Shown in pieces: positions 1,858 through 48,347 of a stretch of DNA of 63,703 bases (its first letter is position 1; the number at the start of each line of letters is the position of its first letter). This DNA comes from a virus. The stretch is taken from the IMG/VR virus record IMGVR_UViG_3300045988_161557; one strand, written 5' to 3'. The translations under genes were made by a program, and so were the position numbers. The notes below the pieces were generated by a model. That model made no database searches and was not told the DNA's origin. It saw nothing but the letters and a program-made list of their open reading frames with translations.

Positions 1858-1888
1858 AGCCCCGTGAGTTTTTACCGCTCACGGGGCT
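1858..1888. terminator. Bidirectional hairpin terminator between convergent genes
   Basis: AGCCCCGTGAG-TTTTTACCG-CTCACGGGGCT: 11-bp perfect stem, 9-nt loop, T-rich tail (TTCCTTTGTT). Confidence 0.75.
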
Positions 1889-1899
1889 TTCCTTTGTTG

Positions 1900-4800
1900 C
1901 TACTTCTCCACCTCCAGCAGCCTGCGGTTAGCCTCCTGCAAGGAGTCCACCACGTTATCGGGTAGGTCATTGTCCTTGTACAGGCGCAGCATGTAGTCTA
2001 TATAGCGTGTGATGCCCCGCATGTCTCTGTAGGCCTTGAAGCGCTCGGATCCTTGCAGCGCGTCCAACTTCTGCCGCTGTGTCTTCTTCGCTTCCTCGAA
2101 GTTGGCTTTAGCCGCCTCCAACGACTTTTCCGCTTCGGCTATAGCGAAGAGGTCGTGTGACTTCTTAGCGGCCTCCAGCTTCTCCTCCTTTGCGCGAACG
2201 TCCAACGCTGCGGGTCGGGGTATGCGCTTTATAAGGCTGAACTCGCTTTCCGTTGCGCCCATGAACGGTTTGACCGTCCGCATGTACTCGCCCTTTGCGC
2301 GTGCCGCGTTACGTTCCCCGCTGCCGCTTATCCAGAAGCGGCTGAGCACGGGTACGCCTCCCCTGTCAAACAGACCCTTTGCGCCTTTCCAATAGTCCTT
2401 TTCCGAGCCACCGCCCTCAAGGTAGGGAGCGGCCAGCGCGTCAGACACGGCCAGCGCTGTGCTTGCCCATCCGCCTGCTATGCCTGTCAGCATCTCCTGA
2501 ACGTAGCCTGGAGCGAAGTCCAGCACGTTGTCGGCAGAGCGCTCGTCATTGCCGCCGCCTACCTTGTTCAACGCGCGTGACATCGCGGTGATGGTCGCAC
2601 TTGTGCTACGGGTAGCCTTGAGGTATTCGGGCTGGTAGCGGCTGAACATGTTGTCGTTGCGCAGTCGGGAGCCCTTGAAGTCGCGGTTTACGGCTATGTG
2701 GGATGCCCACTGCAAGCTGCTTGGAACAAGGCTCGATATAGCCGTGCCAGCGTCTGTAAAGTCCACGTTATTTGGTGCTACAAGTTCCATAATACCCGCA
2801 AAGTCGGAAGCCTGCATATCGCGCTTGCCCGCGAAGGACGCGCCCGTCACATCGCCTACCTGGAACATCGCGCCTAACTCTGGTGTAAGTGGTATCTTCA
2901 GCCAGCCATGCCCTTTAGGAAGACGCAGGCAGATATTATGCTGGCGCTCCCAGTCGGACAACTCATAGTAGTAGTCTCCCCAGTCATCGTCCCCGTCACC
3001 GCCTACAGCGCTGTATATGGCTGGCAGGAGCAAGTTATTGAAGAGTGGCAGAGCCACAGCAGCTGCCGTGACAGGAGCCGCGCCGAACGCGAAAGCGAAC
3101 TTTGCGGGGTGTTCTTTAACAAGCCTGTAGAGCTGGTATGTGCCTTGTACATGTGCGTTGAAGAACACGATGAACGAACGGCCATACTGGCTGTAGTAGT
3201 TCAGTGCGTTGGATAGCCTGTACTTCGCGCCATCCCGCTGCGTCAGGCTCTTGGCACCCGCTCCCTTGCGGTTGAAGTTCAGCGTAGCCTCCTTTGCATC
3301 ATCTATACTGCGCTCTCTTGTGCGTCCCATCTCGCGGCTTGTCTCGTAAGCCACGAAGCGGTTAACCAGTTCTGCGGCCTCGTTGAGGAACGAGAAGAAC
3401 TCGAACATGCGCATGGGGCTGAGCTTCCTGCGCTTGATGTTCTTGAGGTCTCGCACCATGTCCACCATGAACTGCGTGCTCTCCTTCTGGTTGCGTATCA
3501 TGGTGTAGCCAGTAGCACCGCCACCGTCCATGAGCTCCTTGAACATGCGCTCATGGTACCCCGTCATTGGCTTGCCAGCCTCGTACTTGCGCAGCATGCC
3601 CACCATCCTTGCCCAGTTGGCCACGTTGCCAAGTATGAGATTCTGCTTCTTGGTCAGCGCCCACCAGTATGCGGGGCTCTCGCCTATAAACGCGCGCAAG
3701 TTCGAGTGCGCTGTATCTCGTGCAAGGTTAGCCCCACCGAAGGACACGTTGTAGTTGGTAAACGCGCCTGCCATGAAGTTGTTGAGCTTACGCAGGATTG
3801 GCCAGCCGCTGTTTTCGGGGTTCAGCAGGCCGTTTAGTGCCATTGCCACACGCGGGTTGCCCACTATGGTGATGACGCGGTTAGTGCCTCCTACAGAGAG
3901 GCGTATCTGGTGCGCGCGTGCGTGCTGCTGTGTCACTCTGTAAGGCGGCAGGGGCGTTCCCTTCTTCATCTGTATGGCCATGCCCAGAGCGGCCTTCTCG
4001 CGCATATCAGCGTTGAACCTGTCCAGCTCTGCCTGCACCTCCTCCGCGCTCATCTCTCGCCCGCCTGTCATTGGGTCGGTGAGTTCTGGAGTGGCCAGCA
4101 CCCAGTCTGGCGCGTCTTCTGTGCCTCTGTTCTCTACCCACATACTGTCTATGACAGCCAGGCCGTTGGTGTTGTGGGCGCTCACAAGGTTGTAGAAGTG
4201 TTGCAGAGCCATATTCTTGTTACCGCTCGCGATGCTTCTGTACGCCACGCTCAGCAGGCCACCCAGCGGGTTGTCAGCCTCGCTCTTTCTGCCCTTTGCT
4301 GTCTTGACGGGGTTGCCCAGCTCACTGCGCTGTCCGTCCAAGTAGTCGTACATCTCTTCTGCGGTCGGGTCAGCCCAGCCGCGCAAGGGTACGAAGAAGT
4401 CGTAGCGCCTGAGTTGGTCATCCACGTACTTCTTTGTCGTCAGTCCGCTGCTTCTCTGCTTCTCCAGGCTGTACCCGCTCATCGCGCGTATAGCCTCCCA
4501 TAGGTCATCAGTGTAGTGTGTGTTCTCGTAGTTCTCTACGCGCCTGTAGGCAGCTTCCGTGAAGTCCTCTTCCTCCTCGACGAGTGCCGACAGACCGCTG
4601 TAGTCTTCTGTCACGTCTGCCCCGAAGTCAGCGGCTCTCCGTGTCAGCTCTTCCTGCGTCTCCCTCCAAGTCCAGCCGTTCTCCTCTGCATACTCCTTGA
4701 TGAAGGAAGCGGTGCGGTACCAGTTGTCCAGCTCGTCCTCGTAGAACTCTGCTTCGGTCTTCAACCCGTGTTTGTTTGGATGCTTCTTGATGCTGTCTAT

Positions 4801-7800
4801 CTCTGCCTCTATTTGCTTCACACGAGCCTTGATAGCGGCTTCCGTACCCAGCGGGCTTGTCTCGCCAGCTGCTATGCGCGTCAACTCAGTAAGCAGTTGC
4901 GTGCGTTCCTCCTTCAGTTCTGCGGTGGCCTCGTGTATCTGTTCCGCAAAAGACTCCTTAGCCTTCTCCTTCATCGCGGCGCGTATGGCCATGTCTCTGT
5001 TACGCTCTATACCGTGTTTGGAGATGAGATACCAGGACAACTCAAGACCCTTGCCTTTCTTGAAGTCTTTGACAGCGCCTATGAGCCTGTACACGGCACG
5101 CTGTAGCGGGCGTGCAAACGCACTGTCAAAAAGCTTCATCTCGTTTGCGTTGCGGCTGCTCAGTTGCAGCATCGCCTTGTATGCGTTCTGCATGTCGCTC
5201 ACCTTCTCTCCTGTAGCGCGTTCAACGAGCTTCTGGAACTCGTCAACGCTGGCAAGGTAGTCGAAGTAGCCCTCTTTGGCAAGGAAGGATGCTTTACTCA
5301 TCACATCGTCCCATGCGCGTTGCATGGTCTCGCGGCTCCATCCTGCGCCCTCGCTGTCATTGTTCAGCGCACGGCTTATGTCATCCTCACGGAAGAGGTC
5401 TTCAGCCGCAGCGGACTCCTTGCCTTCGGTTTCGTACTGTCCTACTCCAAGTGTCTCCTGCATCTTCAAGTCCTCAGCCGTGCCAAGGATGCTGCGGAAC
5501 GAGCCAGGCTCTTCAAGGTTCTTGTAACTCCTCCACAGGATATAGCGCAGCTCATTGTCGGTGAGTACGGGTCCCGCGTAGTCGAAACCAAGTGTGTGCA
5601 ACATATCCAAGAAAGCCTCCTTGATAGCCGTCCAGAAGGTCGGGTCGGTTGTCTCGTAGTTAATATCCTCTGCAAGGCTCGCAAGATACTCCTCTGTGGC
5701 GGTACGCTGGTCGTAGCCCTTCTCCTCCATGAGCGCGTCTATCTTCTGCCGTATCTTGTAGTCGCAGCTCTCGTACACGTTATCAAGGAACTGGTCGAAG
5801 TGCTCACCGAACAACTGACGCAAGCCGTTGTGGGCTACCGCCTCATGTAGTATTGTCTTCTCCACATCTGCCATGCTGGTGTGGTTGCCTATAACTACGG
5901 TTATCTTGCCAGTAGTCTTGTTGTAGAATCCTTTTGCCTTCTGCCTCTTGCCTGTGAAGCCCGAACCATCGGCCACTATCTCCACGTTGATGAGATGCAG
6001 CTTCTCTGCCAGCTCCTGCGCATGTGTGGTCATACGTTCCCGCATGTTCTCCGCGTATTCTACCTGTTGTCCTGCGCTGTATCGGCTCTTGCCTATCATC
6101 TTTGATACGGGGTCATTGGCAAGCGATACCTCCTCGTCTGTTGCTTGTCCTTCGCCTTCACGCTTGAGCCATTCGCCCCTGTATTCGCTGTTCAGAGCCT
6201 CTATAGCAGCATCGTCCATGTATGCAGCGCCCTTATAGGCTTGCTGCTTCTCCTCGTCCGTCAGGTCATCCCACGCCTTACGCTTGGCTGTCTCCTCGGT
6301 GTATTTGCCGTGCTGGAACTCAAAGCCACGCTTTTCCAGTTCCTTCCTCAGCTCAGGATGGAAGGACTCGATGGGCAGTTGCACCTTCTGTCCTGTCTTC
6401 TCCTCGGCTGTGCTGAGAGTTGCGGCCACTTGGTCGGCCACCTCGCTGTAGGGAACAATGCGCTTGACCTTGCTCCAGCGTGAGAGCATCACCTGTCTTG
6501 CCATATCACCAGGCAGCTGTCCTGCCACGGGTCCTGCTTTCCACTCTGTCATGCCCACCGTGTTCTTCGCGTTCTGTGCTCTATAACCGCTGGTAAGTTC
6601 GCTCTCGGGTATCTCTACCTCCACGACCACTATGTTAGGCCGCTTGTAGGCTGAGGTGAACTGGTCATTAAGCATGCTCATGGAGCTGTGTATATAGGGG
6701 TTGTATGCCGCCCAGAGGCTACTTCCATCTCCCTTCACGAGGTGGAACTGCAAAGTACCTTTTCCGTTCTTGCTCTGCTTGTTGTAACGCAGCTTTCCCT
6801 TGATGAGTTCTACGTTACCAGGCTCGTTTGACTTGTCCAGCGCCTCCATCGCAGCTTTCTGCTCGGGCGTAAAGTCAAGCAGGGTTTCCTCTGCTTCCGT
6901 CCATGCGCCATACGGGTTGCTGTCTGTCAGTTCTCCATCCACCTTTGCGGCCATTGGTGAGTAGAGTTTGCCGTCTATCACCTGCATGGCTCGGTAAGCC
7001 GTTATCTTTGGTTCAGCGTCCAGGCGCTCGATGGTCTCCTTGTCATCCACAACGCGGTAAAGGTCATCCTCTGAAACTTTTTCGTCAGAAACCTTTGGGT
7101 TCTCGAAATCTTGTATTACCTTTGCGATATCAAAAGGTGCTTCGTTGGTTTGCATACCTGAGGGCTTATAGGAACTCGGTGCCAGCCAATTAAGCATCTT
7201 TTCCTTTTCTACCCACTTTAAGGCGTTTCTGAAGTCCTTTTCTCCCATTTTATAGAGTCGAAGAAGCTCCTTCTCTGCGTCTTTGTTGTGTATGCTGGAG
7301 ATATTCGACACTTTCACAACCTCACCGTTGCTATCAAGTTCAAACGACGCAGATAGCTTGCCACCCTTTACGTCAAGTTCCGTTACCACAACAATATTAG
7401 GGGAGTTCTTTCCGTGTTTATACACTAAGATTGGGGATTGGATAGACTTAGCAAGTCCTTTCAAGTCATCTGTGGTGATGGCGTGCTTATTTAGATGCCT
7501 ATTCAACACGGTTGGTGAAAGAGTAATGCTCTCTACGTCTATCCCTGCCGCGCGAAGTATAGCGCCTGGACGACCCAAATGTAGTAGGCCTTTGTGTGAT
7601 TTGTTCTTGAAAGCGTCAAGCTCGTCATTGAACCTTTCGTTCGCCCTCTCCGGGCTTTCATACTCCTTACTCTCCACGTGCTGATAGCGGATGCTCTCCA
7701 CGCTTTCCCCGTCATTCATCATGCGAGGATCCACGCCGTCCAGCAAGTCCTTCATTACGCGGTCTGCCACTTCCTCGGTTGTGGTGTAGTGGATATGTAG

Positions 7801-10800
7801 GAAATAAGCCACGCTCTTCCAGAACGTATCAAGCGCCTGCCGTATCTTCTGCATCGCGCTCATTGCTTCTGCCTTGTCGAAGATGCTTCCGTTCTTGGTA
7901 GCCTCCTCCATCTCTTTACGCAAGCGTTCCGCGCCTTTCCGTCCTGAGTAGGTAGCCAGCACTTCATCCGCTATCTCGTCATCAGTCGTCAGTTCGGGGT
8001 AACGCTTCTTCACTTCCTCCCATACAGCGGTGTCCTTCATAAGGCCAACCACATTCGCCCACTCTTTAGCGTTTGACTGCCTCAGAGCGCTTGCCCACAG
8101 GTGCGCATACTCATGCACAGGCGTTTCGCTGTTGGCTATCTTCGGGTCAATGTATATCTTCCCGTCAACGGTAAAACCATAAGCCTCGCCATCGGCTGTG
8201 CGGAAGAAGCGTACATGGTCAGTTATCTTGGCATCCTTCCCGTTGAAGATGACGTAGTTCTTAGCCTCGTCCAACACACGCTGTCCTTCTTCCTCGTTTG
8301 TTATGACATCCATGCCATTCTCCCGCATTCTGTCTATCAAGGCATCACGCAAGATAGCCTCTTCCTTCCTGGCGGGAACAGCACCTTTTCCGCGCTGGTA
8401 ACGCTCATCAGCCTTGCGAGAGTTGAAACGCTTTGATGGTGGGATAATATTGCCATTGTCATCGCGTGTTACTAAGTCGTTCAGCTTTCTGTTGTTCTTC
8501 ACATTCTTATACCTGTAGTTCTTGCCGTTGTCGTAGCCCCACTCGTTCACGTCGTTGCTGTCCCACCAAAGGTCACTAGCTGGCACCTCGTCTTCAATGA
8601 TACGGTACTTACCCTCCAGACGGTTGTCACCATGCAACTCAGCATACCTCTTCGAAGGAGTCACCCAGTCACCATTGCGCAACTTGCCCTCCTTTACAGT
8701 TGTAGGCACGGCGCGATACACCTTTATCTTCGCATCCTTCTTGCCGTTCCGTATGTCATCAATGGCTGTCTGTATTGCCTTGCCGCTCTCCTTGCTTGTT
8801 GGCAAGCCTTGCGAGTATTTATCAGGATGCGCAAAGATGTCTTCTGGTTGGTTGCTGTAGCCTGCTGCCATATCCTCCACATTGAGGTCTGGCGAGTCTT
8901 CACCAACGGCATTGCGTCTCGCTTCGTCAGTCTCATAATTAGGCTTTGAAGGTGCGCCCCAAGCACCTACACCCTGGTAGTCGCTCTCGGCATCACCATA
9001 CCCCTTACGTCTTGCAGCCTCGTCAAGCATCTCACGGGCAGTAGCCTCGTCACCTTTCGCCAAGGCATCCGCATAGCGTTCGTCTATCTCGTCTCCTGTG
9101 AGTAAAGACAACTCTTCCAAGTGCTGCTGCCTTTTGGTTTCTTCCTCTTCGGCTCTCTTGCGTGCAGCCTCCATCATGCCACGCTCTATCTCCGCTTGCT
9201 TTCTGCGCTCCTCAATAAGCACGTCCACGTCGCCATACTTCGCCTTAATCGCTTGCTCTACAGGCTCAAACAGACGCTTGTTAGCAAGAAGACCGCTCAC
9301 TCCATCGCGCTCCATTAACGCCTTCTTCTCCGCTATATGCTCACGCAGATATAGAGCCTTTAGGTCATGAAGAGCCATTGCAGCCGCAGCCGAATTCCTT
9401 TCTCTCATACCCTCTGCATAGCGGGAAAGCCACATACCATCCAAGCCATGCTCCGCTGCCATCGACTCAACATCTACGTTATCCGTCTTCTGCAGACGCA
9501 CAGATGTCGCCTCACGCTCACCCTTAACAAGCTTCGCACCAGCACTTTTCTCACCATTCCCTTGCTCAGACGAAACCTTTTCTTTATCTTTGCCGTCAGA
9601 AACAGTGTTTTGCGGAGTAGCTGTGCCATTCCGCTTGCCGCCTTCAGCGGTTCCTACAGTGTCTGTCGTATTGTCGGAGACACTGTTTTTCTTTTCAAAG
9701 GCAGTAAGCAGCCAATTCTTTTTCTCACTATCCCATGTTAGGCGTACAGATGCTTGATGCGTCTCACTTTCCAGTTGCACACGATTGTATGTGCGCTTGA
9801 CAACAACCATAGCATCAAGTATCTCTTGCAGATTGCCAAGAACTTCTGGATGGTATTTGGCGAGTTTAGCAAGACCAAAGCCGTCGCTTTTGGCGGTTCC
9901 TTCTTTTCCCCATACCAAATCAATGTCACCAATGTCTTTATGGTGCAATGCGTCCACAGCTTCGCCCTCTTTCTTTTCGAGGAGGAAAGCAATAGCTTCT
10001 TGTGGTTTGCCTTTGAACTGGGTGTATATAGTTCCAAATGCACCTGTCTTTGGAGACTCTGCACTTTCTGACTTCACATTTTTATACTCGTTGAAAGCCT
10101 TTGTCTTGCGCTTGCTTGACTCAATCCACTTCTCGAAGTCTTCAAGGTTCACAGCGGACACATCAATTCTGCGGCCATTCTCCCAGCCCTGCTCGTAATT
10201 GGCAAGGTAATCTCCCATAGCCTCGTCAGCATCATTGAAGCCAAGCATAACCTTGTGCTCGTCAAAACTACCGTCAGGGTTGTACTGGTCAATGACGAAC
10301 ACCTTTCGTCCGTCCCAACCGTCGATATCATTGGAGAGGAACACGTCAATATGGTCTCCGTCAACGCCTACTGTACCACGAATGTAGCCGTAAGTGTTGT
10401 TCATCTTGCTTTCCCACTCCTTGCCGTTGGCATCAGTGCCCCTACGCACGCTGCCCTGCGGCTGCTCGATGGTGATGTCGAACGTACCAACTTGTACATG
10501 TCCCTTCTTATAGTTGCCTGCTTCCTTCTGCGCCTCTGTCGGTTCTGTATTCACTTCGGCTGAAGCTGTGGCTATCTGTTCAGAAAGTAACGCTCCTCCC
10601 TTGTTTTCAGAAGGTTTTTCGCGTTTCGCGCGCTCCTCTTCTGCCAGTCTCTCAGCCTCCGCAAATATATTGCCTTTTTCTTGCTCGGTTGCAAGCTTTG
10701 TACTACCTTTGCCGTCAGAAGACAAGTCGTGTTGAGGAGTGGAAAGGCTTTCCACCTTATCCTTCGAGGATAACATAACGAGTTCGCCGCCGTTCTTCTC

Positions 10801-13800
10801 GACTTGTTGGCCATCCGTAAGGTTGGAAAGGCCACCAACCTCTTCTGAATTTTCAGAAGGCAGTATGAGGACTTGGCCGCCCTCACGGATGGCTTGTTTT
10901 TTTATAAGCCCCAAATTCTTATCGTTCACATAATGCCAGTGGATAATCTCAACAGCATTCTTGCTTGGGTTTATTTCCAGTAGTACTATGCGGTTATGCC
11001 CTTTTTCGTCTTTCGTGTTTATTACTACCCAATTATAGGGGCGTTTAGCCTTTTGGTTCTGCCCATACAAGTCAGCATTGTATAAAGCGGAAAACAAAAT
11101 CCCACGACTTTGGCTAGGGGATAAGTCCTTGTGGCGTTCTGCATTTCTCTCAAAGATATTCTTCTTGATGATGACAGGTTTACCGTCCGTGCCAAGGGCA
11201 TTGCCAACATTCTCAGGAACCTGCGGCAACTCCACATTGCGGGTAGGGTGTGAAAAGTCTTCGTCTGTTATATCGTCAATAGACTCTACTTTTTCCAGCT
11301 TTAATGTACCGTCAGCGTTCAATGGGTTGCCCTGACTATCATGCTCATTGGTGGCAGAATATTTTTCGCGTTTCGCTACTCTTTCTTCCGACGGTATATC
11401 ACCTTGGAGTTCTGGTGTTCCTCCCACATTCGCTGGTCTTCCTCCTGCTGCTTCTGCTCCAGCATTCTCTTGTGTAGCCTCTGGTTTACCAGCGCCTTCA
11501 TCGCCAGCATCTTCTTCTGCTCTGGTGTCTGCGCGCTTTTCACCTCCTCGGGTGTCATCAGTCCGTTCGCCAAGTTGTACTTGACGGCTTCCACCATCGC
11601 TCTGCTCTTCTCCTGCGGAGTCATTTCCTTCTGTTCCATTGTTCTGTTGTTTAGCTTGTTCTTCTCTTCTGCGCAAGTCCTCCTCTATCTCGTCTGCGTA
11701 TAGCTTGGTGAACTCTTGCTCGTCAAAGTTACTATATCTTCTCAACATCTCGGGCATCTCCTGCTCGGAATATGCGATATAGTCCTCATAAGACATGCCA
11801 TAGCGCTCGTTATAGTACGCATCGCGCTGCGCGTTGTACTGCGCCACAAACTCCTGCTCCTGGTCAGTCTTATATCGTCCCGACTTGAGGAAGTCTATAA
11901 TGGCATCCCTTGCGGCAGCGCTGTCACCGCCGAAGAAGCGGCCGCTGTTCTCTGTATTGTCGAGGTCAACCAACTTTTCGGACAGGCGTTCTATGCTGTC
12001 TCCCTCCTTCGCGATACGTCCTGCCCACTGCTTCTGCTCCAGCGTCCCGCCTCCAGTCTCTTTTCTGAAGGACTCAGGTGCTATCTTGGCACTTGCCATG
12101 AAGTCGGCGATGAACTCCTGCTGTGTGGGTATGCCGTTCTCGGCCTTTCGCTGTGCTCGGTAGGCCGCGCGTGCGTTATCATCGTTCAGCTCGCCCTCCC
12201 AGCCTTGCGCGTCTGCGGGTGTGGTTATTCTCTCCACTTCGGCTTTTACATCGTTCCAGTACTGAGCCTTGTGGCGGGCATCTTCCAGTTCGTCTTCCCA
12301 CTTCTTCTTGCTGGCAAGGTACTTGGCCTTGTCAGTGCCTACCTTGGGCTTCCGATTCTCCAGCTTCTTCACGTTCTTGTCGGCTTCCGCTATCTGTGCC
12401 TCTATGAACTCGCCCACCTCCTTATCGTCAAGTGTGCCGTCATACAGGTCTTCCACGGTAGCCTGCACAGGAGCTTTGTAGTACTGGGGTACTCCGTTCT
12501 TATCCAGCGGTATCTTCGGAGTGGCCTTGTTCTCCACAGTGGGAGCGGCCTCACTCTCCACAGCGGGAGCGGCTTCACCCTCCACTACAGCGGATGACCC
12601 GCCAGTCTGCCCCTCCTCGTCTGGTGCGTCCTTGCTATCCACGTAGTCATGCAGGAGCTGTTTCGTCTTGGCATCCCACTCTGACTCATCCACGATGTCT
12701 ATCCACTCATGGATTGTCTCGGCATCGTTCTCGTCACGCGCCCAGCCGTCAACCATTGCACGTGCGCTTCTTCCTTCCTCGGTAGCGTCCAACTGCGCGG
12801 CCACCTCGCTACGTGTAGGCACGGCTGTATCTGCAGGAGCGTCCTCCTCTGTAGCGGGAGTGCCCTCTATGACCACAGAAGAACCGTCAGTCGGTGTCTC
12901 CTCTGTTGCACCGCCCTCCGTAGTCTCCTCCACCGCGCTGCGCTCGGCATCGCGCTGCGCTGCGTCCTCCTGCTCATACACGTAGTCCTGGGAAGACAGA
13001 AGCTCGTCAGCGGTGGCCTTGAAGGGTGTGCCGCTTATGGCTTCCTCCTCGCCTGCCTCGTTCATGCGTGTGGGCAGGAGATAGAAGTTACCCTCCTCAT
13101 CCTCCTTCACGATGAGGAAGCGCTGTGTCTCGTTATCCTCGTCCTCGCTCTTGCGCATGCTGATGCTGACCGTCTCACCCACGGCAGGCTGCACGGTCTT
13201 GTTATGGTGGTTGAGGTTCCAGCGTACTTCATCCTTCGCCTGCTCCCACAGCTGCTGGCGTCTGACTTCTGTCTCCTCGCTGGCATTGACGGCTGTCAGT
13301 TCTCCCGCCTCATCACGCGGTATCATGCGCAGAGCGCCTGTCTCCATATCGCGCACCACCAGCGTACTGCCTTCGTCAGACAGGGAAGAAGGCACAACAT
13401 ACTCGTTCTCTCCAAGGTTAGATCCGCGCCAGGCGTTGCCATCCTCGTCCGACATGAGGCTTAACGTGTTGCCGTACTTGTCGGCTTCCTCGTCCACGCG
13501 GTCATGCGCCCCTGCCATGATACCGCTCAGTCGGACGCTGGACAGATACACATCCGTAGCGGCCTTCTTCTGCTCCCAGTTCAGTGTCTTCAGTATCTCC
13601 TGGAACCGCGGCAAGTCCATATCCCGCACGGCCATCACGAAGTCCTTGCCCAGCATTTCGGTAGCGGTTGCCGCTGCATTGTCAAACTCTACAGCGGCAT
13701 TGTGGCGCTCATCAGCGGCCATCTCATGCCCTGCGTCAAACGCGCTCTTATAGCCTCGCTGTACACGGTTTGCACTTATCTCCCCAGACATATCGCTTGT

Positions 13801-16248
13801 GTTTACGCTCTGGTAGGACACCAGCTTACCAGCGTAGTCCATCAGCGCGCGCGCCTGCTTGCTGTCCTTCAGCCCGCCATCCTTGAGGACGGACATATAC
13901 ACATCGCATATATCCTTGATGCTCTCTGCCTCGCGCATGCGGGTCATAAGAGGTACAGCAGTCTCCTCGCCCAACGACTTGCGCAGGGCATCGGCAGAGG
14001 TGTTCAGCTGGCGCTTGACGGTGTAGGAGTTGTAGCGCTTCTGGCCTTGCTCGATAGCGGCCATGGGCATAATCATCGCTGCCACAGATAAGAAGGTCTC
14101 CAAGTTTGTCTCAGCGTTGAACATGGATCCTTTCCAGTCGTTCACGGCTTTGTTGTAGTCCTCCTCGCTCTTGTAGTCCTCGCGCTTTGGCTCGAAGACA
14201 CCTCCCGTCAGGTTCATGTCGCCTGTGAAAACCGCGTTCTCCAGGTTGTTTATCACCTCCTCTGCATACTCCCCGAAGAGGCCGCTTATGTGCGCTTTCT
14301 TGCGGAACTCGGCCAGCAGTGAAGCCTTCTGCTTCGGTGAGGATGCAATGAACCGTTCCACCATGCTGCGTGCCAGGGGCATATCCTTTGCGGCAAGGTT
14401 GGCAAAGTTCTTTATCGGTGAGAAGTACTCACCCACCAGCTCGGACTGGTTCTCGAAGTAGGAAGCCAAGCCCCCCTTGAGGTACGACTTAGCCCCTGTC
14501 TCTCTGTCCTCCACGCGGTCATACACTATGCGTCCGCTGTCATCCACACGGCCTATGAACGTACCCGTCTGCCTCTCGTTGATAGAGGCCATGGTACGCG
14601 GCAGGCCAGTGGTGAGTGTTGTACCCAGTGCCTCCACTCCATCACCTATCACGCGGCCTGCGGTGTTCATCGCGCGCACGCCCCACTTGCCGTATTTGTT
14701 CACAGCGGCTACGGTGAGGGCGCGCTGCATGCTCTGCTCGGCGGCGTTCATGGTAGGCGCGCCAGTCACGTTCTTCATCACCGTCTTGCCCGCTGTCTTC
14801 ATCGCGCCCTTCAGCACTCCCTTCACGCCTCCCTTGGCAGCGTTAGCCGCTACTTGCTTCTCCACAGCAGCACCCAGTCCGTTGAGCGGGTTGAGGTAGA
14901 TGCTGGCGGCAAAGCCCGCAGAGGCAGGCACGCTCTGTCCTACGCGGTAGGACATCGGCACGTGCTCACTGAAGTTAGCGTCCAGCGTACTTGATACGGC
15001 CATCGCGTCCAGAACTCTCTGCTCGGTTGCGGTCAGATGCTCCTCGGGTGTCTTGCCTGCCTCCTCGGCCTTGCGGATTCGCTCCGACTTATCTACAAGC
15101 TCAGCCAGGTTACGGCTGTCGGCCCAGTCGTTGGCACCGAAGTCCCACGTGCGTATATCGCGGGTAGCGTCCCACGCGCCACGTGCCACGTTGAAGGCTG
15201 TGTTGTTGGAGAAGCCCTCGCGCGTAGCCTGCTTGATAGTGTTTTCTGTGTCCTCCAGTGCCTGCTCTGCGGCCTTGGCCTTGCCATACTCGGGGTCTGT
15301 CCACCTACGTATGTAAGAGGTCACGTTGGGGAACTGGCTCTCAGCGAACTCCATAAAGCCCGACTTCTCGCCTCGTCTCTCCTCTATGTCCTCCAGCGCC
15401 TTGGCCACCTCCTCCTTTGCAGCCTCGAGTTGTTCTCTGCCGCCTCCCAGCTCGTACTCGGCCTTCACATCGCGCCCGCGGTATTTCTTCTCTGCTGCGT
15501 CCCGCTGCTGCTGTAGGCGGTCTATGGCCTGCATGATATAGCCTTTGCGTGTCTCACTCGTATGGTCGGTACCCTTAATGCGGTCATACTGCTCCTGCAT
15601 GACGGTCAGCTGCTTGTCTATGCCTGCCAGCTCCTCCTGCCGCTTGCGGTCTATCTCCTCCTGCACGTGAGCCAGCTTACGCGCCTGTTCCTGCTGCTTG
15701 TCCAGAGCGGCCTGCTCACGCTCGGCAGAAGCCTGTGAAGTGTACTCGTTGCCGCTCTGTGTTATGTAGGTGCGCTCCTGTTTGCCTGTCTTGGCATTGA
15801 ACGTAGGAGCGGTGGCCACAGTACGACCCGACTTGCCAAGTCCAAGTTCTATCTTCGGCACGTTAAGCCCGAAGTTGGCCTTCTGCCACTCCTGCGCGTT
15901 CTCTGCCTGGTGCAGCACATCGCGCCCGCGTGCTACCGCCAGAGCGTTGTTCTTAGCCGCTCTTGCGTAGTCATCCGCGTTGGGCTGTGCCGCTCTGCCC
16001 TGCTCTTCGGCTGGATCCTCCTGTTTGGCTGGCTTCACGGCATGCAAGCCAAGGTTGGCAGCAAACTCCTCGTAGGTATTGCTCTCTACGGCGTTGTCCT
16101 GCTTCAGCGCTGTAAAGAGCGCGAGCCTGTTCTTGTAGCCTTCCTCACCAGGTGCAAGCATCTTAGCTCGGAAGTTCTCTCTACCGCTTGTTACCGCGCC
16201 ATCACGTTCCAGCGCATCGTATAGTATATCTAACTTATCCTGTGCCAT
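1900..16248 (-). CDS. Giant polyvalent protein (4,782 aa), multi-domain, probably virion-delivered anti-defence or ejection protein
   Basis: Single uninterrupted 14,349-nt ORF. Motifs read from the translation: family-I PPase-like TYGYIRGTVGVDGDHIDV (about nt 10342-10400); zincin HEYAH (8101-8115) and HEAVAH (5830-5847); a YRAV..GDWVTPS..NEWGY module (8525-8725); small His-rich nuclease-like or MuF_C-like modules (ERNAERH ~10880-11260, IGDIDLVWG..GFGLAKL ~9680-10040, NRHLNKH ~7280-7560); a hydrophobic helix FAFAFGAAPVTAAAVALPLF (3000-3105). Long acidic or coiled-coil linkers separate the modules. Confidence 0.8.
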   Translation of the reverse strand: MAQDKLDILYDALERDGAVTSGRENFRAKMLAPGEEGYKNRLALFTALKQDNAVESNTYEEFAANLGLHAVKPAKQEDPAEEQGRAAQPNADDYARAAKNNALAVARGRDVLHQAENAQEWQKANFGLNVPKIELGLGKSGRTVATAPTFNAKTGKQERTYITQSGNEYTSQASAEREQAALDKQQEQARKLAHVQEEIDRKRQEELAGIDKQLTVMQEQYDRIKGTDHTSETRKGYIMQAIDRLQQQRDAAEKKYRGRDVKAEYELGGGREQLEAAKEEVAKALEDIEERRGEKSGFMEFAESQFPNVTSYIRRWTDPEYGKAKAAEQALEDTENTIKQATREGFSNNTAFNVARGAWDATRDIRTWDFGANDWADSRNLAELVDKSERIRKAEEAGKTPEEHLTATEQRVLDAMAVSSTLDANFSEHVPMSYRVGQSVPASAGFAASIYLNPLNGLGAAVEKQVAANAAKGGVKGVLKGAMKTAGKTVMKNVTGAPTMNAAEQSMQRALTVAAVNKYGKWGVRAMNTAGRVIGDGVEALGTTLTTGLPRTMASINERQTGTFIGRVDDSGRIVYDRVEDRETGAKSYLKGGLASYFENQSELVGEYFSPIKNFANLAAKDMPLARSMVERFIASSPKQKASLLAEFRKKAHISGLFGEYAEEVINNLENAVFTGDMNLTGGVFEPKREDYKSEEDYNKAVNDWKGSMFNAETNLETFLSVAAMIMPMAAIEQGQKRYNSYTVKRQLNTSADALRKSLGEETAVPLMTRMREAESIKDICDVYMSVLKDGGLKDSKQARALMDYAGKLVSYQSVNTSDMSGEISANRVQRGYKSAFDAGHEMAADERHNAAVEFDNAAATATEMLGKDFVMAVRDMDLPRFQEILKTLNWEQKKAATDVYLSSVRLSGIMAGAHDRVDEEADKYGNTLSLMSDEDGNAWRGSNLGENEYVVPSSLSDEGSTLVVRDMETGALRMIPRDEAGELTAVNASEETEVRRQQLWEQAKDEVRWNLNHHNKTVQPAVGETVSISMRKSEDEDNETQRFLIVKEDEEGNFYLLPTRMNEAGEEEAISGTPFKATADELLSSQDYVYEQEDAAQRDAERSAVEETTEGGATEETPTDGSSVVIEGTPATEEDAPADTAVPTRSEVAAQLDATEEGRSARAMVDGWARDENDAETIHEWIDIVDESEWDAKTKQLLHDYVDSKDAPDEEGQTGGSSAVVEGEAAPAVESEAAPTVENKATPKIPLDKNGVPQYYKAPVQATVEDLYDGTLDDKEVGEFIEAQIAEADKNVKKLENRKPKVGTDKAKYLASKKKWEDELEDARHKAQYWNDVKAEVERITTPADAQGWEGELNDDNARAAYRAQRKAENGIPTQQEFIADFMASAKIAPESFRKETGGGTLEQKQWAGRIAKEGDSIERLSEKLVDLDNTENSGRFFGGDSAAARDAIIDFLKSGRYKTDQEQEFVAQYNAQRDAYYNERYGMSYEDYIAYSEQEMPEMLRRYSNFDEQEFTKLYADEIEEDLRRREEQAKQQNNGTEGNDSAGEEQSDGGSRQVQLGERTDDTRGGEKRADTRAEEDAGDEGAGKPEATQENAGAEAAGGRPANVGGTPELQGDIPSEERVAKREKYSATNEHDSQGNPLNADGTLKLEKVESIDDITDEDFSHPTRNVELPQVPENVGNALGTDGKPVIIKKNIFERNAERHKDLSPSQSRGILFSALYNADLYGQNQKAKRPYNWVVINTKDEKGHNRIVLLEINPSKNAVEIIHWHYVNDKNLGLIKKQAIREGGQVLILPSENSEEVGGLSNLTDGQQVEKNGGELVMLSSKDKVESLSTPQHDLSSDGKGSTKLATEQEKGNIFAEAERLAEEERAKREKPSENKGGALLSEQIATASAEVNTEPTEAQKEAGNYKKGHVQVGTFDITIEQPQGSVRRGTDANGKEWESKMNNTYGYIRGTVGVDGDHIDVFLSNDIDGWDGRKVFVIDQYNPDGSFDEHKVMLGFNDADEAMGDYLANYEQGWENGRRIDVSAVNLEDFEKWIESSKRKTKAFNEYKNVKSESAESPKTGAFGTIYTQFKGKPQEAIAFLLEKKEGEAVDALHHKDIGDIDLVWGKEGTAKSDGFGLAKLAKYHPEVLGNLQEILDAMVVVKRTYNRVQLESETHQASVRLTWDSEKKNWLLTAFEKKNSVSDNTTDTVGTAEGGKRNGTATPQNTVSDGKDKEKVSSEQGNGEKSAGAKLVKGEREATSVRLQKTDNVDVESMAAEHGLDGMWLSRYAEGMRERNSAAAAMALHDLKALYLREHIAEKKALMERDGVSGLLANKRLFEPVEQAIKAKYGDVDVLIEERRKQAEIERGMMEAARKRAEEEETKRQQHLEELSLLTGDEIDERYADALAKGDEATAREMLDEAARRKGYGDAESDYQGVGAWGAPSKPNYETDEARRNAVGEDSPDLNVEDMAAGYSNQPEDIFAHPDKYSQGLPTSKESGKAIQTAIDDIRNGKKDAKIKVYRAVPTTVKEGKLRNGDWVTPSKRYAELHGDNRLEGKYRIIEDEVPASDLWWDSNDVNEWGYDNGKNYRYKNVKNNRKLNDLVTRDDNGNIIPPSKRFNSRKADERYQRGKGAVPARKEEAILRDALIDRMRENGMDVITNEEEGQRVLDEAKNYVIFNGKDAKITDHVRFFRTADGEAYGFTVDGKIYIDPKIANSETPVHEYAHLWASALRQSNAKEWANVVGLMKDTAVWEEVKKRYPELTTDDEIADEVLATYSGRKGAERLRKEMEEATKNGSIFDKAEAMSAMQKIRQALDTFWKSVAYFLHIHYTTTEEVADRVMKDLLDGVDPRMMNDGESVESIRYQHVESKEYESPERANERFNDELDAFKNKSHKGLLHLGRPGAILRAAGIDVESITLSPTVLNRHLNKHAITTDDLKGLAKSIQSPILVYKHGKNSPNIVVVTELDVKGGKLSASFELDSNGEVVKVSNISSIHNKDAEKELLRLYKMGEKDFRNALKWVEKEKMLNWLAPSSYKPSGMQTNEAPFDIAKVIQDFENPKVSDEKVSEDDLYRVVDDKETIERLDAEPKITAYRAMQVIDGKLYSPMAAKVDGELTDSNPYGAWTEAEETLLDFTPEQKAAMEALDKSNEPGNVELIKGKLRYNKQSKNGKGTLQFHLVKGDGSSLWAAYNPYIHSSMSMLNDQFTSAYKRPNIVVVEVEIPESELTSGYRAQNAKNTVGMTEWKAGPVAGQLPGDMARQVMLSRWSKVKRIVPYSEVADQVAATLSTAEEKTGQKVQLPIESFHPELRKELEKRGFEFQHGKYTEETAKRKAWDDLTDEEKQQAYKGAAYMDDAAIEALNSEYRGEWLKREGEGQATDEEVSLANDPVSKMIGKSRYSAGQQVEYAENMRERMTTHAQELAEKLHLINVEIVADGSGFTGKRQKAKGFYNKTTGKITVVIGNHTSMADVEKTILHEAVAHNGLRQLFGEHFDQFLDNVYESCDYKIRQKIDALMEEKGYDQRTATEEYLASLAEDINYETTDPTFWTAIKEAFLDMLHTLGFDYAGPVLTDNELRYILWRSYKNLEEPGSFRSILGTAEDLKMQETLGVGQYETEGKESAAAEDLFREDDISRALNNDSEGAGWSRETMQRAWDDVMSKASFLAKEGYFDYLASVDEFQKLVERATGEKVSDMQNAYKAMLQLSSRNANEMKLFDSAFARPLQRAVYRLIGAVKDFKKGKGLELSWYLISKHGIERNRDMAIRAAMKEKAKESFAEQIHEATAELKEERTQLLTELTRIAAGETSPLGTEAAIKARVKQIEAEIDSIKKHPNKHGLKTEAEFYEDELDNWYRTASFIKEYAEENGWTWRETQEELTRRAADFGADVTEDYSGLSALVEEEEDFTEAAYRRVENYENTHYTDDLWEAIRAMSGYSLEKQRSSGLTTKKYVDDQLRRYDFFVPLRGWADPTAEEMYDYLDGQRSELGNPVKTAKGRKSEADNPLGGLLSVAYRSIASGNKNMALQHFYNLVSAHNTNGLAVIDSMWVENRGTEDAPDWVLATPELTDPMTGGREMSAEEVQAELDRFNADMREKAALGMAIQMKKGTPLPPYRVTQQHARAHQIRLSVGGTNRVITIVGNPRVAMALNGLLNPENSGWPILRKLNNFMAGAFTNYNVSFGGANLARDTAHSNLRAFIGESPAYWWALTKKQNLILGNVANWARMVGMLRKYEAGKPMTGYHERMFKELMDGGGATGYTMIRNQKESTQFMVDMVRDLKNIKRRKLSPMRMFEFFSFLNEAAELVNRFVAYETSREMGRTRERSIDDAKEATLNFNRKGAGAKSLTQRDGAKYRLSNALNYYSQYGRSFIVFFNAHVQGTYQLYRLVKEHPAKFAFAFGAAPVTAAAVALPLFNNLLLPAIYSAVGGDGDDDWGDYYYELSDWERQHNICLRLPKGHGWLKIPLTPELGAMFQVGDVTGASFAGKRDMQASDFAGIMELVAPNNVDFTDAGTAISSLVPSSLQWASHIAVNRDFKGSRLRNDNMFSRYQPEYLKATRSTSATITAMSRALNKVGGGNDERSADNVLDFAPGYVQEMLTGIAGGWASTALAVSDALAAPYLEGGGSEKDYWKGAKGLFDRGGVPVLSRFWISGSGERNAARAKGEYMRTVKPFMGATESEFSLIKRIPRPAALDVRAKEEKLEAAKKSHDLFAIAEAEKSLEAAKANFEEAKKTQRQKLDALQGSERFKAYRDMRGITRYIDYMLRLYKDNDLPDNVVDSLQEANRRLLEVEK

Positions 16249-16250: not shown

Positions 16251-17381
16251 TTATAAACCAAGTGCTCTTGTGTGTGACATATTATTGTTCGGCTTCTTTC
16301 CTGTCTTGGCCTTCTTCTTGGCCTCTTCCTTCTCTCTGAGCGCTCTGGTATGCTCGCCGCTCTTCTGCTTGGCGCTCTTACCTCGTTCAGTGGTCTTACT
16401 GCTCTTGCCTCCGAAAGCATCTACAGACTTCGTGACAGTCTTGTTACTCTCGTCTATCTCTTGACTCATCAGAATATCCGCGGCTTTATTGCCTGTCACC
16501 CTAATCTTTTGCGTTTTATGTGTAACAGGGTCGGCAAGCTCTACATCCACATAGTTTCCGTTGCCGCCTCCACCGCTTTTTGCTTTGGAGTTCCAGTATG
16601 CTATCTTGGCTCTCCTTTCTGCCTCCGCAAGTGGCTGACCCTCTTCCAAGGCTTGCGTCTTTGCGTCCCAATAAGCCTTTATGGCTTCGTCCTTTGAATC
16701 CTGCACCCTCATGCGCCCAATCTTTGCGTCATTAAGGGCTTTCTTGTTCGCCGCTTCTCTCTCGTCTGCATTTACCTTGCGCGTTAACTCCGCTCTCTTC
16801 AGACCAAGCTCCTCTCCCTTCTGCTGGAGCGCACGGCCTTGCAGCAGGTTGTTAAGGTAAGCCTGCCTGCTCTTCTCCACCTGTGTGCGGAATGCCTGCA
16901 CGTCCTTGTTAGCGTCTGGCAGGTCTGGAAGCTTCTGGCTTGGAGCCACACCGCCTGTAAAGGCAAGGTTGCTGAACGCGCTGAGCACGTTGCCCAGTGC
17001 GCCCATGCTCTGAGCGGCAGCAGCTCCGCGCTCTCTGCGCTTCTGCTCCTCCTCGGTCATCGGTGCGGAAGTGTACTGCTTGACCAGCTCAGAGAAGTTG
17101 TCGTAGTCGCTGACTGGCGGTATATCCAGGGATGGCTTTTCCTTCTCCGCAACGGGCGTTTCCACTCTCTGCTCTTTCGGTGTCCATGGGGTCTGCGGTG
17201 TATAGTCCGATGTCTTTCTCTGCAAGGCGGCTGGCACCTCGTCCTTCACGGCAGGAGCGGGGGCGGTCACGGCAGGAGCGGGAGTCAGGGTAGTAGTTAC
17301 CGCTGGCTTCGGTGAGTAAGTCACACTCTTCTTCTCGTCATCGTCGAGAAAAGAATACATGTCTGATTCTGTTCTCTTCAT
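16251..17381 (-). CDS. Hypothetical protein, Pro/Thr-rich N-terminus, coiled-coil and Lys-rich C-terminus
   Basis: 376-aa ORF. There is a 2-nt gap to the giant gene start and a 2-nt gap to the upstream gene. No recognisable motif. Confidence 0.65.
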   Translation of the reverse strand: MKRTESDMYSFLDDDEKKSVTYSPKPAVTTTLTPAPAVTAPAPAVKDEVPAALQRKTSDYTPQTPWTPKEQRVETPVAEKEKPSLDIPPVSDYDNFSELVKQYTSAPMTEEEQKRRERGAAAAQSMGALGNVLSAFSNLAFTGGVAPSQKLPDLPDANKDVQAFRTQVEKSRQAYLNNLLQGRALQQKGEELGLKRAELTRKVNADEREAANKKALNDAKIGRMRVQDSKDEAIKAYWDAKTQALEEGQPLAEAERRAKIAYWNSKAKSGGGGNGNYVDVELADPVTHKTQKIRVTGNKAADILMSQEIDESNKTVTKSVDAFGGKSSKTTERGKSAKQKSGEHTRALREKEEAKKKAKTGKKPNNNMSHTRALGL

Positions 17382-47821: not shown

Positions 47822-47855
47822 AATTCTACCTTTTAATTCTTACTCTCTCTCTTCT

Positions 47856-48331: not shown

Positions 48332-48347
48332 GGTATGTGTCGTTTTA

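Follow-up and report, generated by a model that had tools for sequence, protein, structure and literature searches.

Polyvalent proteins combine 2-15 functionally unrelated domains, LPD families included, and a prediction of 2017 cast them as the principal carriers of phage anti-defence and takeover enzymes into the cell (Iyer et al., PMC5512222). In that account, the InPase and LPD38 domains are confined to the phage-type members, and P1 DarB is given as a large, head-packaged phage protein that protects incoming DNA. Within the family, experimental data exist for only two proteins, both with a C-terminal LPD38-type module. Stx phage phi24B gp47 (2,811 aa; LPD5, LPD1, LPD38, and MuF-C) was found by virion proteomics and proposed to be an ejection protein; it is abundant in virions, was unseen in the capsid and tail reconstruction, and was proposed to form a trans-periplasmic conduit (bioRxiv 10.64898/2026.04.10.717836). 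Escherichia coli phage protein PTXU04_00025 (2,198 aa) is needed for efficient infection (bioRxiv 10.1101/2023.09.18.558157). Closer in sequence to the locus described here are two proteins of cultured Bacteroides phages, BKO1-TP3 gp55 (5,553 aa, annotated "DarB-like antirestriction") and BF1-TP2 gp68 (3,633 aa, annotated "hypothetical") (GenBank PQ571269 and PQ571263), neither of which is discussed or characterised in the Bacteroides phage study (PMC12694917).

We present here an analysis of a giant open reading frame (ORF) in a 63,703-nt stretch of viral DNA, referred to below as the window. It encodes a 4,782-aa protein which, by its sequence, is supported as a phage-type polyvalent protein with conserved ends and a mosaic middle.

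Results

The giant ORF (1900..16248, minus strand) starts with ATG and has 4,782 codons and a stop, with zero internal stops in the window translation; all coordinates within it are likewise on the minus strand. A first-pass annotation had described one unbroken ORF of about 22% of the genome, with the strand unstated, and the figure holds at 22.5% of the window. The second-longest ORF listed is 1,229 aa. At the base composition of the window, the probability of 4,782 codons without a stop is about 1e-97, so the ORF is not producible by chance, and dN/dS, computed pairwise with two relatives, stays at 0.03-0.44 in each 400-codon block, which supports coding over the full length. A 55-nt unit repeated at both ends of the window marks the contig as circular or terminally redundant; the genome is that of a 63.6-kb circularly assembled temperate gut phage of Bacteroidales type.

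The ORF is real, and the idea of a misassembly that joined several genes or strains into a chimera is effectively refuted. Module content does vary between assemblies, and on two related ENA scaffolds, L001 and L002, the giant gene appears in two pieces; the first-pass annotation had named such an interruption in independent assemblies as evidence against the ORF. Both frame breaks, however, fall exactly on runs of N (L001 9969-9978, L002 9842-9941) and are thus scaffold gaps rather than true interruptions. Uninterrupted versions of 5,142 and 4,699 aa are found on two IMG/VR contigs, so that a single frame is kept over 4,699-5,142 codons in all three gap-free assemblies, the window among them. 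Also against an artefact are the dN/dS values, below 0.45 everywhere, and the 3,633- and 5,553-aa homologues in deposited genomes of cultured phages.

Six polyvalent-protein Pfam families scored above their gathering cut-offs in HMM searches (LPD14, LPD13, InPase, PBECR1, MuF_C, and LPD38), and at least four further conserved modules have no family. Several unrelated domains, LPD families included, are thus joined in one polypeptide; the phage encodes a portal (42309-44210), a terminase large subunit (60280-62787), and an integrase (37366-38598) on the same circular contig; and both domains of the phage-type signature, InPase (PF18823, E 1e-52) and LPD38 (PF18857, E 7e-20), are present. These results agree with the earlier reading of the ORF and support its assignment to the phage-type polyvalent proteins of the 2017 definition by Iyer et al. 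(PMC5512222). An NCBIfam search of the protein and a megablast search of the ORF against deposited phages gave no match.

Alignment with relatives divides the protein into three zones, namely, a conserved N-terminal end (aa 1-1600), a recombining cassette (aa 1600-3345), and a conserved C-terminal end (aa 3346-4782). Acidic linkers between modules, as previously proposed, are seen at aa 901-1300, 1501-1600, and 3801-3900, where net charge is -11 to -20 per 100 aa.

The N-terminal module (11449..16248) is shared by many proteins of 3,000-6,400 aa. Its first 1,000 residues are matched by 274 cluster representatives, in every case at their own N-terminus, and the module is common to 81 cluster representatives of 3,000-6,399 aa, of which 70-72 (~87%) also have the LPD38 chassis at their C-terminus and 56 have InPase. 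Against relatives, its dS is ~0.1 and its dN/dS is 0.04-0.25. An LPD14 match (aa 639-680; 14209..14334; PF18827, E 7e-9 to 1e-10) is above the cut-off and partial, covering profile positions 54-95 of 136 only; searches of aa 1-1600 against Pfam, PHROG, and NCBIfam found nothing beyond this fragment. About a third of the giant protein, aa 1-1600, is without a functional clue.

The C-terminal chassis (aa 3346-4782; 1903..6213) matches phrog_14770 (E 5e-239), is 97-98% identical in close relatives, and has more than 750 homologues in a segment search of a 5.8-billion-protein database. The segment searches seem to have listed matches only up to ~1.75 times the query length (the longest match was 2,489 aa with a query of 1,426 aa and 1,611 aa with one of 921 aa), and full-length giants emerged only from the cluster-representative search. 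The chassis, modelled by AF2 with a pLDDT of 72, contains an HExxxH subdomain, a long helical region, one or more hydrophobic helices (aa 4384-4412; 3013..3099), and LPD38 (aa 4426-4606; 2431..2973; E 7e-20 to 7e-21). Kyte-Doolittle 19-residue windows above 1.6 are confined, in the whole protein, to aa 4384-4412, which are helical in the AF2 model, consistent with the C-terminal part of ~1,300 aa with a hydrophobic helix noted at first pass. A Foldseek search of two multi-domain AF2 models, a kind of query ill-suited to it, gave nothing significant against PDB.

The cassette, read as a series of effector or processing domains that fold independently, has the order LPD13, InPase, PBECR1, YRAV, HExxH module, MuF_C, and module D. 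LPD13 (aa 1645-1786; 10891..11316; PF18825, E 5e-51) is matched over its full profile length. InPase (aa 1905-2043; 10120..10536) is matched over profile positions 1-135 of 135 with 178 bits against a cut-off of 26.8, and is predicted to be a family-I inorganic pyrophosphatase of the polyvalent InPase clade, as the first-pass annotation had proposed. A further match is to the portal chain of phage Pa193, in its C-terminal part (PDB 9b41, E 2e-22), and InPase is present in PHROGs that carry the labels virion structural or minor head protein; an InPase-portal protein fusion is described by Iyer et al. (PMC5512222). PBECR1 (aa 2100-2189; 9682..9951; PF18809, E 3e-8 to 6e-9, 34.5-36.9 bits) and PBECR-type MuF_C (aa 2917-3017; 7198..7500; PF18819, E 2e-10 to 4e-12, 40.9-46.6 bits), each with a cut-off of 27.6 bits, are predicted RNases by profile. 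In a structural test of the PBECR/MuF_C modules, a CdiA-CT toxin was matched weakly and locally in fold, which is no more than suggestive (probability 0.8, E 0.37). Three His-rich modules of this kind had been proposed; Pfam supports these two and does not support the third. Module D (aa 3060-3345; 6214..7071), beta-rich and of unassigned function, is modelled with a pLDDT of ~90 and has 22 distinct homologous segments with conserved YRA / AAYNPYxH / LSRW motifs and no Pfam match; it is missing from relative M2 (4,699 aa).

The YRAV / GDWVTPS / NEWGY motifs (aa 2511-2572), which had been called, weakly, an R-S-E type ADP-ribosyltransferase (ART), belong to a small, highly conserved alpha/beta domain (the YRAV domain, aa 2470-2585; 8494..8841) with 27 invariant columns in an alignment of 16 homologues (alignment A3) and an AF2 pLDDT of ~80-90. 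A new minimal R-S-E type ART would fit the placement of the named R, S, and E in invariant columns (R43, S63, and E100 of A3) and the AF2-predicted order of strand (YR), strand (WVT-PS), helix, strand, strand, and strand (EWG), which we take to resemble that of the catalytic elements in ARTs. The domain, however, has no Pfam match even at E 10 and no PDB profile match, its core is only ~90 aa, S-T-S and E-x-E are absent from the conserved columns, and its only family match is phrog_2579, labelled "ParB C-terminal domain" (E 5e-22). With hhalign it scored a probability of 0.7% against the ART-PolyVal modules of relatives and was likewise unrelated to the HExxH module, negatives that are weak because the alignments are shallow (Neff 2-3). 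The domain is thus real, and its reading as an ART is improbable.

Two modules carry metal-binding-type motifs. Module B (aa 2664-2850; 7699..8259) is zincin-like, with HEYAH at aa 2712; the two histidines and the glutamate of the HExxH motif show 90% conservation or more across 88 distinct homologous segments, and acidic residues downstream of the motif are conserved too. It has no Pfam match, peptidases included, even at E 10, no PDB match, and a weak BFVD match to a SprT-like protein for which the aligned region is not known. The second is the HExxxH subdomain of the chassis (aa 3390-3640; 5329..6081), in which HEAVAH (aa 3468-3473; nt 5830-5847) is part of an L-H-E-x-V-x-H-x-G-L-R motif that is invariant or nearly so in 48 homologues; this subdomain has no Pfam match. 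HExxxH is a non-canonical zincin spacing. Two HExxH zincins had been claimed, and one of them is a true HExxH; the other is HExxxH, and neither matches any peptidase HMM or solved structure. PDB sequence-profile searches with alignments A1, A2, and A3 gave noise only, and hhalign found no relation between the two modules, again from shallow alignments (Neff 2-3). In the AF2 models, module B has three strands followed by the HExxH helix, and the HExxxH subdomain has a helix, three strands, and then the motif helix; both motifs thus lie in a helix preceded by three beta strands, fitting the topology described for MPTases by Iyer et al. (PMC5512222). Zincin-like MPTases of polyvalent proteins are further marked by a Glu downstream of HExxH.

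Compared with two IMG/VR relatives, aa 1-2065 are ~85% identical and the C-terminal part (from aa ~3310-3345) is 97-98% identical, and the centre is rearranged. dS is ~0.1 in the end modules versus 0.7-1.0 in central blocks, and dN/dS in the end modules is 0.03-0.14 over most of their length. The relatives carry ART-PolyVal, PBECR3, and LPD3 modules where the window has none. The recognised ART-PolyVal domain (PF18760) is present in four of four close relatives and in BF1-TP2 gp68 and is absent from the window protein, which retains of that region just the "NYVIFN" strand that follows the domain in relatives and that opens module B here. Five phage genomes, ~95-98% DNA-identical across conserved gene parts, have different cargo sets between the same end modules. 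From these sequence comparisons, the central cassette is interpreted as swapped by recombination among otherwise near-identical phages.

The giant gene ends a 33-kb minus-strand run with the order exonuclease, SSB, DNA polymerase, primase-helicase, methyltransferase, SNF2 helicase, two small ORFs, and giant ORF; intergenic gaps in the listed ORF coordinates are 2-8 nt. The first of the two small ORFs (17384..17995, minus strand) encodes a protein with an N-terminal transmembrane helix (hydrophobic residues 9-38), and its true start is likely the ATG at 17932. It is 48% identical to BKO1-TP3 gp57 (E 3e-33) and 38% identical to BF1-TP2 gp70 (E 4e-15), each located two genes upstream of the giant gene of its own phage. 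The second (16251..17381, minus strand), with its stop 2 nt before the giant ORF start, encodes a 376-aa low-complexity protein with no family match and weak homology to BKO1-TP3 gp56 (E 1e-4). The block of small transmembrane, ~370-aa, and giant genes is thus conserved in three phages. The first-pass annotation had placed the giant gene away from the portal, which is true in this genome; in BKO1-TP3, the orthologous block is directly upstream of the portal gene.

The stretch from the stop of the SNF2 helicase gene to the likely ATG of the small transmembrane protein contains a hairpin with a T-run, so the three-gene block may be its own transcription unit. At its other end, a 13-bp GC-rich palindrome (1857..1889), 11 nt downstream of the giant ORF stop and between convergent genes, is probably a bidirectional terminator, judged by a consensus match in a scan for terminator-like sequences. 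In the circular genome, the giant gene faces the terminase gene, ~2.8 kb away, with its 3′ end. Pfam searches with ten ORFs from the structural region were uninformative about the tail type, and no close prophage copy was found in species-representative genomes; a distant search with the chassis points to Bacteroidales as the host group. Diversity-generating retroelements are reported in most temperate phages of the Bacteroides phage study (PMC12694917). That the retroelement here targets the giant gene was considered and rejected, as its variable repeat is located in a 413-aa ORF.

Discussion

The window protein resembles the polyvalent proteins described by Iyer et al. (PMC5512222) in joining unrelated effector and LPD domains in one chain in a portal-terminase phage, in its InPase, LPD38, PBECR1, and MuF_C domains and interspersed, putatively zincin-like HExxH modules, and in a domain architecture that varies among orthologues. 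It differs in that the Pfam model of their hub MPTase domain is not matched and in that Pfam families are lacking for ~60% of its length (aa 1-1600, YRAV, modules B and D, and most of the chassis outside LPD38). A plan of a fixed N-terminal module and a fixed C-terminal chassis was not found in the available text of that account. The same end-module plan recurs in dozens of metagenomic proteins of 3,000-6,400 aa; neither size nor architecture is unusual. The earlier statement that size and domain combination are unmatched holds for experimentally characterised proteins and fails for the homologues in cultured Bacteroides phages. With gp55 and gp68, the window protein shares homologous N-terminal module, InPase, and C-terminal LPD38 chassis, at 31-63% identity in blocks; both are encoded behind the same two small genes in temperate phages of 64-68 kb. 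They differ in their interiors, with ddrB-ParB and an SNF2 helicase in gp55, whose gene adjoins the portal, and ART-PolyVal and PBECR5 in gp68.

The relationship to the proteins with experimental data is more distant. Both phi24B gp47 and PTXU04_00025 are about half the size, come from phages of Enterobacteria, and do not have InPase among their listed domains; they share the C-terminal LPD38-type module with the window protein, which also has MuF_C in common with gp47, and the chassis matches Stx-converting phages with ~25% identity over a third of its length. P1 DarB, from which the PHROG label "DarB-like antirestriction" derives, is likewise a large phage protein and shares that label with relatives of the window protein, whose own match to phrog_10089 is limited to the InPase region and a portion of the chassis. 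DarB has an N6-adenine methylase and SNF2 helicase pair in one chain, whereas the window ORF has neither; a methyltransferase and an SNF2 helicase are encoded upstream by genes of their own. These two genes were considered as "unfused" DarB-like parts and rejected: the helicase matches that of gp55 only marginally, over 93 aa (E 6e-7), and no match to either gene exists among the 149 family representatives.

The giant ORF probably encodes a three-zone phage-type polyvalent protein that is packaged, ejected with the DNA, and cleaved to free effector enzymes. It would be made alongside the two small upstream-encoded proteins, one of them membrane-anchored, packaged in the capsid, and injected through the portal and tail with the DNA; packaging and envelope crossing would fall to the conserved ends together with the two small proteins. 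The zincin-like modules would then cleave the polypeptide into pieces, and the freed enzymes may act on host RNA, nucleotides, or pyrophosphate, among other targets, in the first minutes of infection, with a putative anti-defence function. Packaging is suggested indirectly by the virion proteomics of the distant phi24B gp47, the portal-InPase fusion, and the portal-adjacent block of BKO1-TP3. The conservation of HExxH and HExxxH and their predicted topology speak for processing; the non-canonical HExxxH spacing and the lack of any peptidase HMM match speak against it.

A possible alternative, which overlaps this explanation and differs from it mainly in emphasis, is that the protein is primarily a structural ejection protein: its end modules and the two small proteins would jointly span the Bacteroidales envelope as a channel, and the enzyme domains would be secondary passengers or act on the cell wall. 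T7 gp14/15/16 and the P22 ejection proteins are the parallel. The virion abundance and proposed conduit role of the LPD38 protein phi24B gp47, the retention of the three-gene block in three phages, the hydrophobic helix in the chassis, and the strong purifying selection on the end modules all fit such a channel. The protein nevertheless resembles no solved ejection protein in fold or in sequence, and the chassis is without a PDB fold match, so a conduit role is only an analogy; in addition, Pfam found no lysozyme or transglycosylase domain, and the structural genes have no family matches from which to give this phage a tail type. That the protein stays unpackaged, as an early or middle cytoplasmic multi-enzyme of the replication operon with roles in nucleotide or RNA metabolism or host takeover in an already infected cell, is unlikely. 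The gene is last in the same-strand replication run, with gaps of a few nucleotides, and does not adjoin the portal here, so early or middle intracellular expression is possible. Weighing against this are the portal-adjacent block of BKO1-TP3, the virion association of LPD38 and InPase relatives, the upstream hairpin and T-run that may separate the block from the replication genes, and the terminase gene faced by the giant gene on the circular map.

To our knowledge, almost no polyvalent proteins have been studied experimentally, and none in Bacteroidales, the dominant gut order. This locus provides a natural experiment, with five genomes, nearly identical across the conserved parts of this gene, that differ in cargo between the same two end modules, together with a defined three-gene block and cultured relatives in BF1-TP2 and BKO1-TP3, and it flags several conserved domains outside current libraries. 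It extends a known class with a clearer anatomy and does not overturn current understanding. Tentatively, the N-terminal module, the LPD38 chassis, and the two small proteins may together be a dedicated delivery platform of Bacteroidales phages, with the interior as a cargo bay swapped by recombination. If so, effector domains would be exchanged between strains by recombination as host defences change, the cargo would include three or more domain families that Pfam does not yet cover (YRAV, module D, and the HExxxH subdomain), and the system would be a functional phage counterpart of bacterial polymorphic-toxin systems.

Gene integrity

The giant gene occupies positions 1900 to 16248 of the minus strand as a single open reading frame (ORF) that begins with ATG and runs for 4,782 codons without an internal stop. 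It covers 22.5% of the window, confirming the observation in the first-pass annotation of one uninterrupted ORF making up about 22% of the genome. The probability of 4,782 codons without a stop, computed from this base composition, is about 1e-97, and the next longest ORF in the window encodes 1,229 amino acids (aa). The dN/dS ratios between the window and two IMG/VR relatives (Nei-Gojobori, blocks of 400 codons) are 0.03 to 0.44 in every block, including the acidic linkers. The giant ORF is a genuine gene under selection.

Interruption of the ORF in independent assemblies, which had been named as a counterindication, was also checked. In both ENA scaffolds of close relatives (L001 and L002), the giant gene is present with about 95 to 98% DNA identity over the conserved parts and 93 to 98% protein identity, in two pieces in different frames. 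The frame shifts fall exactly on stretches of N (10 bases at L001 9969 to 9978 and 100 at L002 9842 to 9941); the breaks are therefore scaffold gaps, and a split gene was rejected. Two gap-free IMG/VR contigs (68.5 and 60.7 kb) each contain one intact ORF, of 5,142 and 4,699 aa, respectively, and the first 30 and last 30 residues of both products are identical to those of the window protein. A further N-run lies inside the giant gene at L001 8719 to 8728. Because of such N-runs in public scaffolds, databases and gene callers hold the relatives' giant gene as at least two truncated "proteins" (e.g., P0001 and P0003) with spurious opposite-strand ORFs.

Domain content

Six Pfam families score above their own gathering scores in the giant protein: LPD14 (partial; aa 639 to 680; E, 7e-9), LPD13 (aa 1645 to 1786; E, 5e-51), InPase (aa 1905 to 2043; E, 1e-52), PBECR1 (aa 2100 to 2189; E, 3e-8), MuF_C (aa 2917 to 3017; E, 2e-10), and LPD38 (aa 4426 to 4606; E, 7e-20). 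All six were defined from polyvalent proteins, and this HMM search supports the polyvalent-protein interpretation proposed earlier from sequence alone. InPase and LPD38 are among the domains that Iyer et al. 2017 (PMC5512222) list as restricted to phage-type polyvalent proteins. The InPase region matches PHROGs labelled DarB-like, virion structural protein, and minor head protein, and aa 3357 to 4603 match a single PHROG of unknown function (phrog_14770; E, 5e-239). For residues 1 to 1400, PHROGs and NCBIfam give no match, and Pfam gives nothing beyond the LPD14 fragment. Strongly acidic stretches and a single hydrophobic segment (aa 4384 to 4412) are located where the first-pass annotation placed them.

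The same annotation counted two HExxH zincins. Both motifs are conserved, and only HEYAH (aa 2712) is an HExxH motif, the one at aa 3468 (HEAVAH) being HExxxH. Of 88 distinct segments homologous to this module, at least 90% keep HEYAH, along with acidic residues downstream of it, and LHEAVAHxGLR is nearly invariant among 48 homologues of the C-terminal module. In AlphaFold models (pLDDT, 72 to 73), each motif lies in a helix after three beta strands, the arrangement described for the zincin-like MPTase (Iyer et al. 2017, PMC5512222). Neither module matches a Pfam peptidase family or a solved structure, and the two show no mutual similarity. Both are plausible candidate peptidases.

The YRAV/GDWVTPS/NEWGY module (aa 2470 to 2585) is a real, highly conserved small domain with 27 invariant columns among 16 homologues; in PHROGs, its match carries the label "ParB C-terminal domain." Its earlier, weak assignment as an R-S-E ADP-ribosyltransferase (ART) was not upheld, as no relationship to ARTs was detected in Pfam, in PDB profiles, or by hhalign against ART-PolyVal modules. 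The polyvalent-protein ARTs described by Iyer et al. 2017 (PMC5512222) are of the H-Y-D type, with R-S-E ARTs not found among them. The window protein lacks the recognised ART-PolyVal domain, of which all four close relatives have one or two copies immediately before the HEYAH module (aa 2664 to 2850). The window protein retains only the "NYVIFN" strand that closes ART-PolyVal in the relatives, which suggests that the domain was either lost cleanly and in frame here or gained by the relatives.

Conserved ends and wider family

Both ends of the giant protein are conserved, and the cargo region between them recombines. Relative to the two IMG/VR relatives, aa 1 to 2065 are about 85% identical and the C-terminal part (from aa ~3310 to 3345) is 97 to 98% identical, and the centre aligns piecewise, with insertions, deletions, and replacements. 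Synonymous divergence in these comparisons is about 0.1 in aa 1 to 1600 and 3310 to 4782 and rises to 0.7 to 1.0 in aa 1605 to 2057 and other central blocks, indicating that whole modules are exchanged with distant alleles. At aa 1605 to 2057 (window 10077 to 11436), LPD13 and InPase are both retained in the relatives despite this divergence; here one allele of a homologous module has replaced another, and no different module has been swapped in. The alignment ends of homologues cluster at aa 2250, 2610 to 2665, 2845 to 2860, 3055, and about 3400, marking module boundaries. Cargo varies among relatives: in one, ART-PolyVal replaces PBECR1 after InPase; some have an extra LPD3 or PBECR3; and one lacks the module at aa 3060 to 3345.

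When 1.84 billion cluster representatives were scanned in full by HMMER with aa 1 to 1000 (E ≤1e-3), 274 matched; among the best 150 of these, the matching region almost always lies at the protein's own N terminus. Those 150 (149 representative sequences) include 81 proteins of at least 3,000 aa, 27 of at least 5,000 aa, and 9 of at least 6,000 aa, the longest being 6,399 aa. Searching the window protein's modules against the 149 representatives placed the HExxxH subdomain, helical middle, and LPD38 at the C-terminal end of 70 to 72 of the 81 giants and InPase in 56, with differing interior modules. A plan of fixed N terminus, variable interior, and fixed C terminus is thus common, and among proteins built this way the window protein has a middling size; the claim that its size and domain combination were unmatched was overstated. 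The C-terminal region alone (aa 3346 to 4782) has more than 750 homologues; among species-representative genomes, it is present in 205 stretches, almost all of them from Bacteroidales.

The best matches in deposited phages are in three temperate Bacteroides phages. BF1-TP2 gp68 (3,633 aa; annotated hypothetical) contains Pfam InPase, ART-PolyVal, PBECR5, and LPD38, and BKO1-TP3 gp55 (5,553 aa; annotated DarB-like) contains ddrB-ParB, InPase, SNF2, and LPD38. Neither giant protein is discussed in the source paper of these phages (PMC12694917).

Genome context

Between about 33 kb and 1.9 kb, a run of genes on the minus strand encodes an exonuclease, Gp2.5-like SSB, DNA polymerase, primase-helicase, methyltransferase, SNF2 helicase, 203-aa ORF, 376-aa ORF, and the giant protein, in that order. 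The product of the 203-aa ORF carries a membrane helix at its N terminus and is 48% and 38% identical to BKO1-TP3 gp57 and BF1-TP2 gp70, respectively, and that of the 376-aa ORF shows weak similarity to BKO1-TP3 gp56. The two corresponding small genes also lie directly upstream of the giant gene in both phages, and the giant gene is co-inherited with them. A 6-bp GC hairpin (GCCCGC...GCGGGC) followed by a T-run (CTTTTTAA; 17944 to 17980, minus strand) sits between the SNF2 helicase stop (18004 to 18006) and the ATG at which the small membrane protein likely starts (17932); a transcription unit of their own may begin here for the three genes. A 13-bp GC-rich palindrome lies 3′ of the giant ORF stop, and the terminase gene faces the giant gene convergently, about 2.8 kb away on the circular map. 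The DNA methyltransferase (486 aa) and SNF2-family helicase (453 aa) are separate genes in the window (18004 to 21662, minus strand). Some relatives carry an SNF2 helicase inside the giant protein, e.g., BKO1-TP3 gp55, to whose helicase the window's has only marginal similarity.

The opening 55 nt of the window are repeated at 56 to 110 and at the very end, so the contig is circular or terminally redundant, with a short array of tandem copies where the ends join. Positions 1 to 240 hold about 3.5 tandem copies of this unit followed by 33-nt repeats with the same core; the exact copy at 63649 to 63703 is probably the assembly overlap of a circular contig. The array, between the terminase gene and small ORFs, could be an origin, packaging site, or iterons. 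A diversity-generating retroelement (49369 to 52615, minus strand) comprises a reverse transcriptase (49369 to 50664), a template repeat (50677 to 50799), and a variable repeat (51395 to 51517), with 14 of 15 mismatches between the repeats at coding-strand adenines. The variable repeat lies within the 3′ end of a 413-aa ORF (51374 to 52615), ruling out the giant gene as target. A 165-nt tandem repeat (32479 to 32819; 2.1 copies, 92% match, with nested 12- to 18-nt repeats) lies in a 287-aa ORF (32304 to 33167) without a family match, just upstream of the exonuclease gene. The presumed structural region (38616 to 42305 and 47309 to 59318, minus strand), including the 1,229-aa ORF that immediately follows the portal gene, has almost no family assignments in Pfam or PHROGs.

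Proposed role

From indirect evidence, we infer that the giant protein would be packaged into the capsid and injected into the host. Virion proteomics found phi24B gp47, a distant LPD38 protein (bioRxiv 10.64898/2026.04.10.717836); an LPD38 protein is required for infection by phage PTXU04 (bioRxiv 10.1101/2023.09.18.558157); an InPase-portal fusion exists in PDB 9b41, read alongside the argument made by Iyer et al. 2017 (PMC5512222); and in BKO1-TP3 the three-gene block adjoins the portal gene, immediately upstream on the same strand. A mostly structural protein acting as a conduit is possible, if somewhat doubtful, and a non-packaged, cytoplasmic role, which the gene's position after the replication genes would favor, is improbable against this evidence. 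The metal-motif modules may cleave their own polypeptide, and the cargo domains would contribute predicted RNase and pyrophosphatase activities, all roles predicted for these families by Iyer et al. 2017 (PMC5512222). What makes the locus valuable is its clear three-zone anatomy, the cassette variants that exist in nature, several conserved domains missing from current libraries, and the availability of cultured relatives in which it can be tested.
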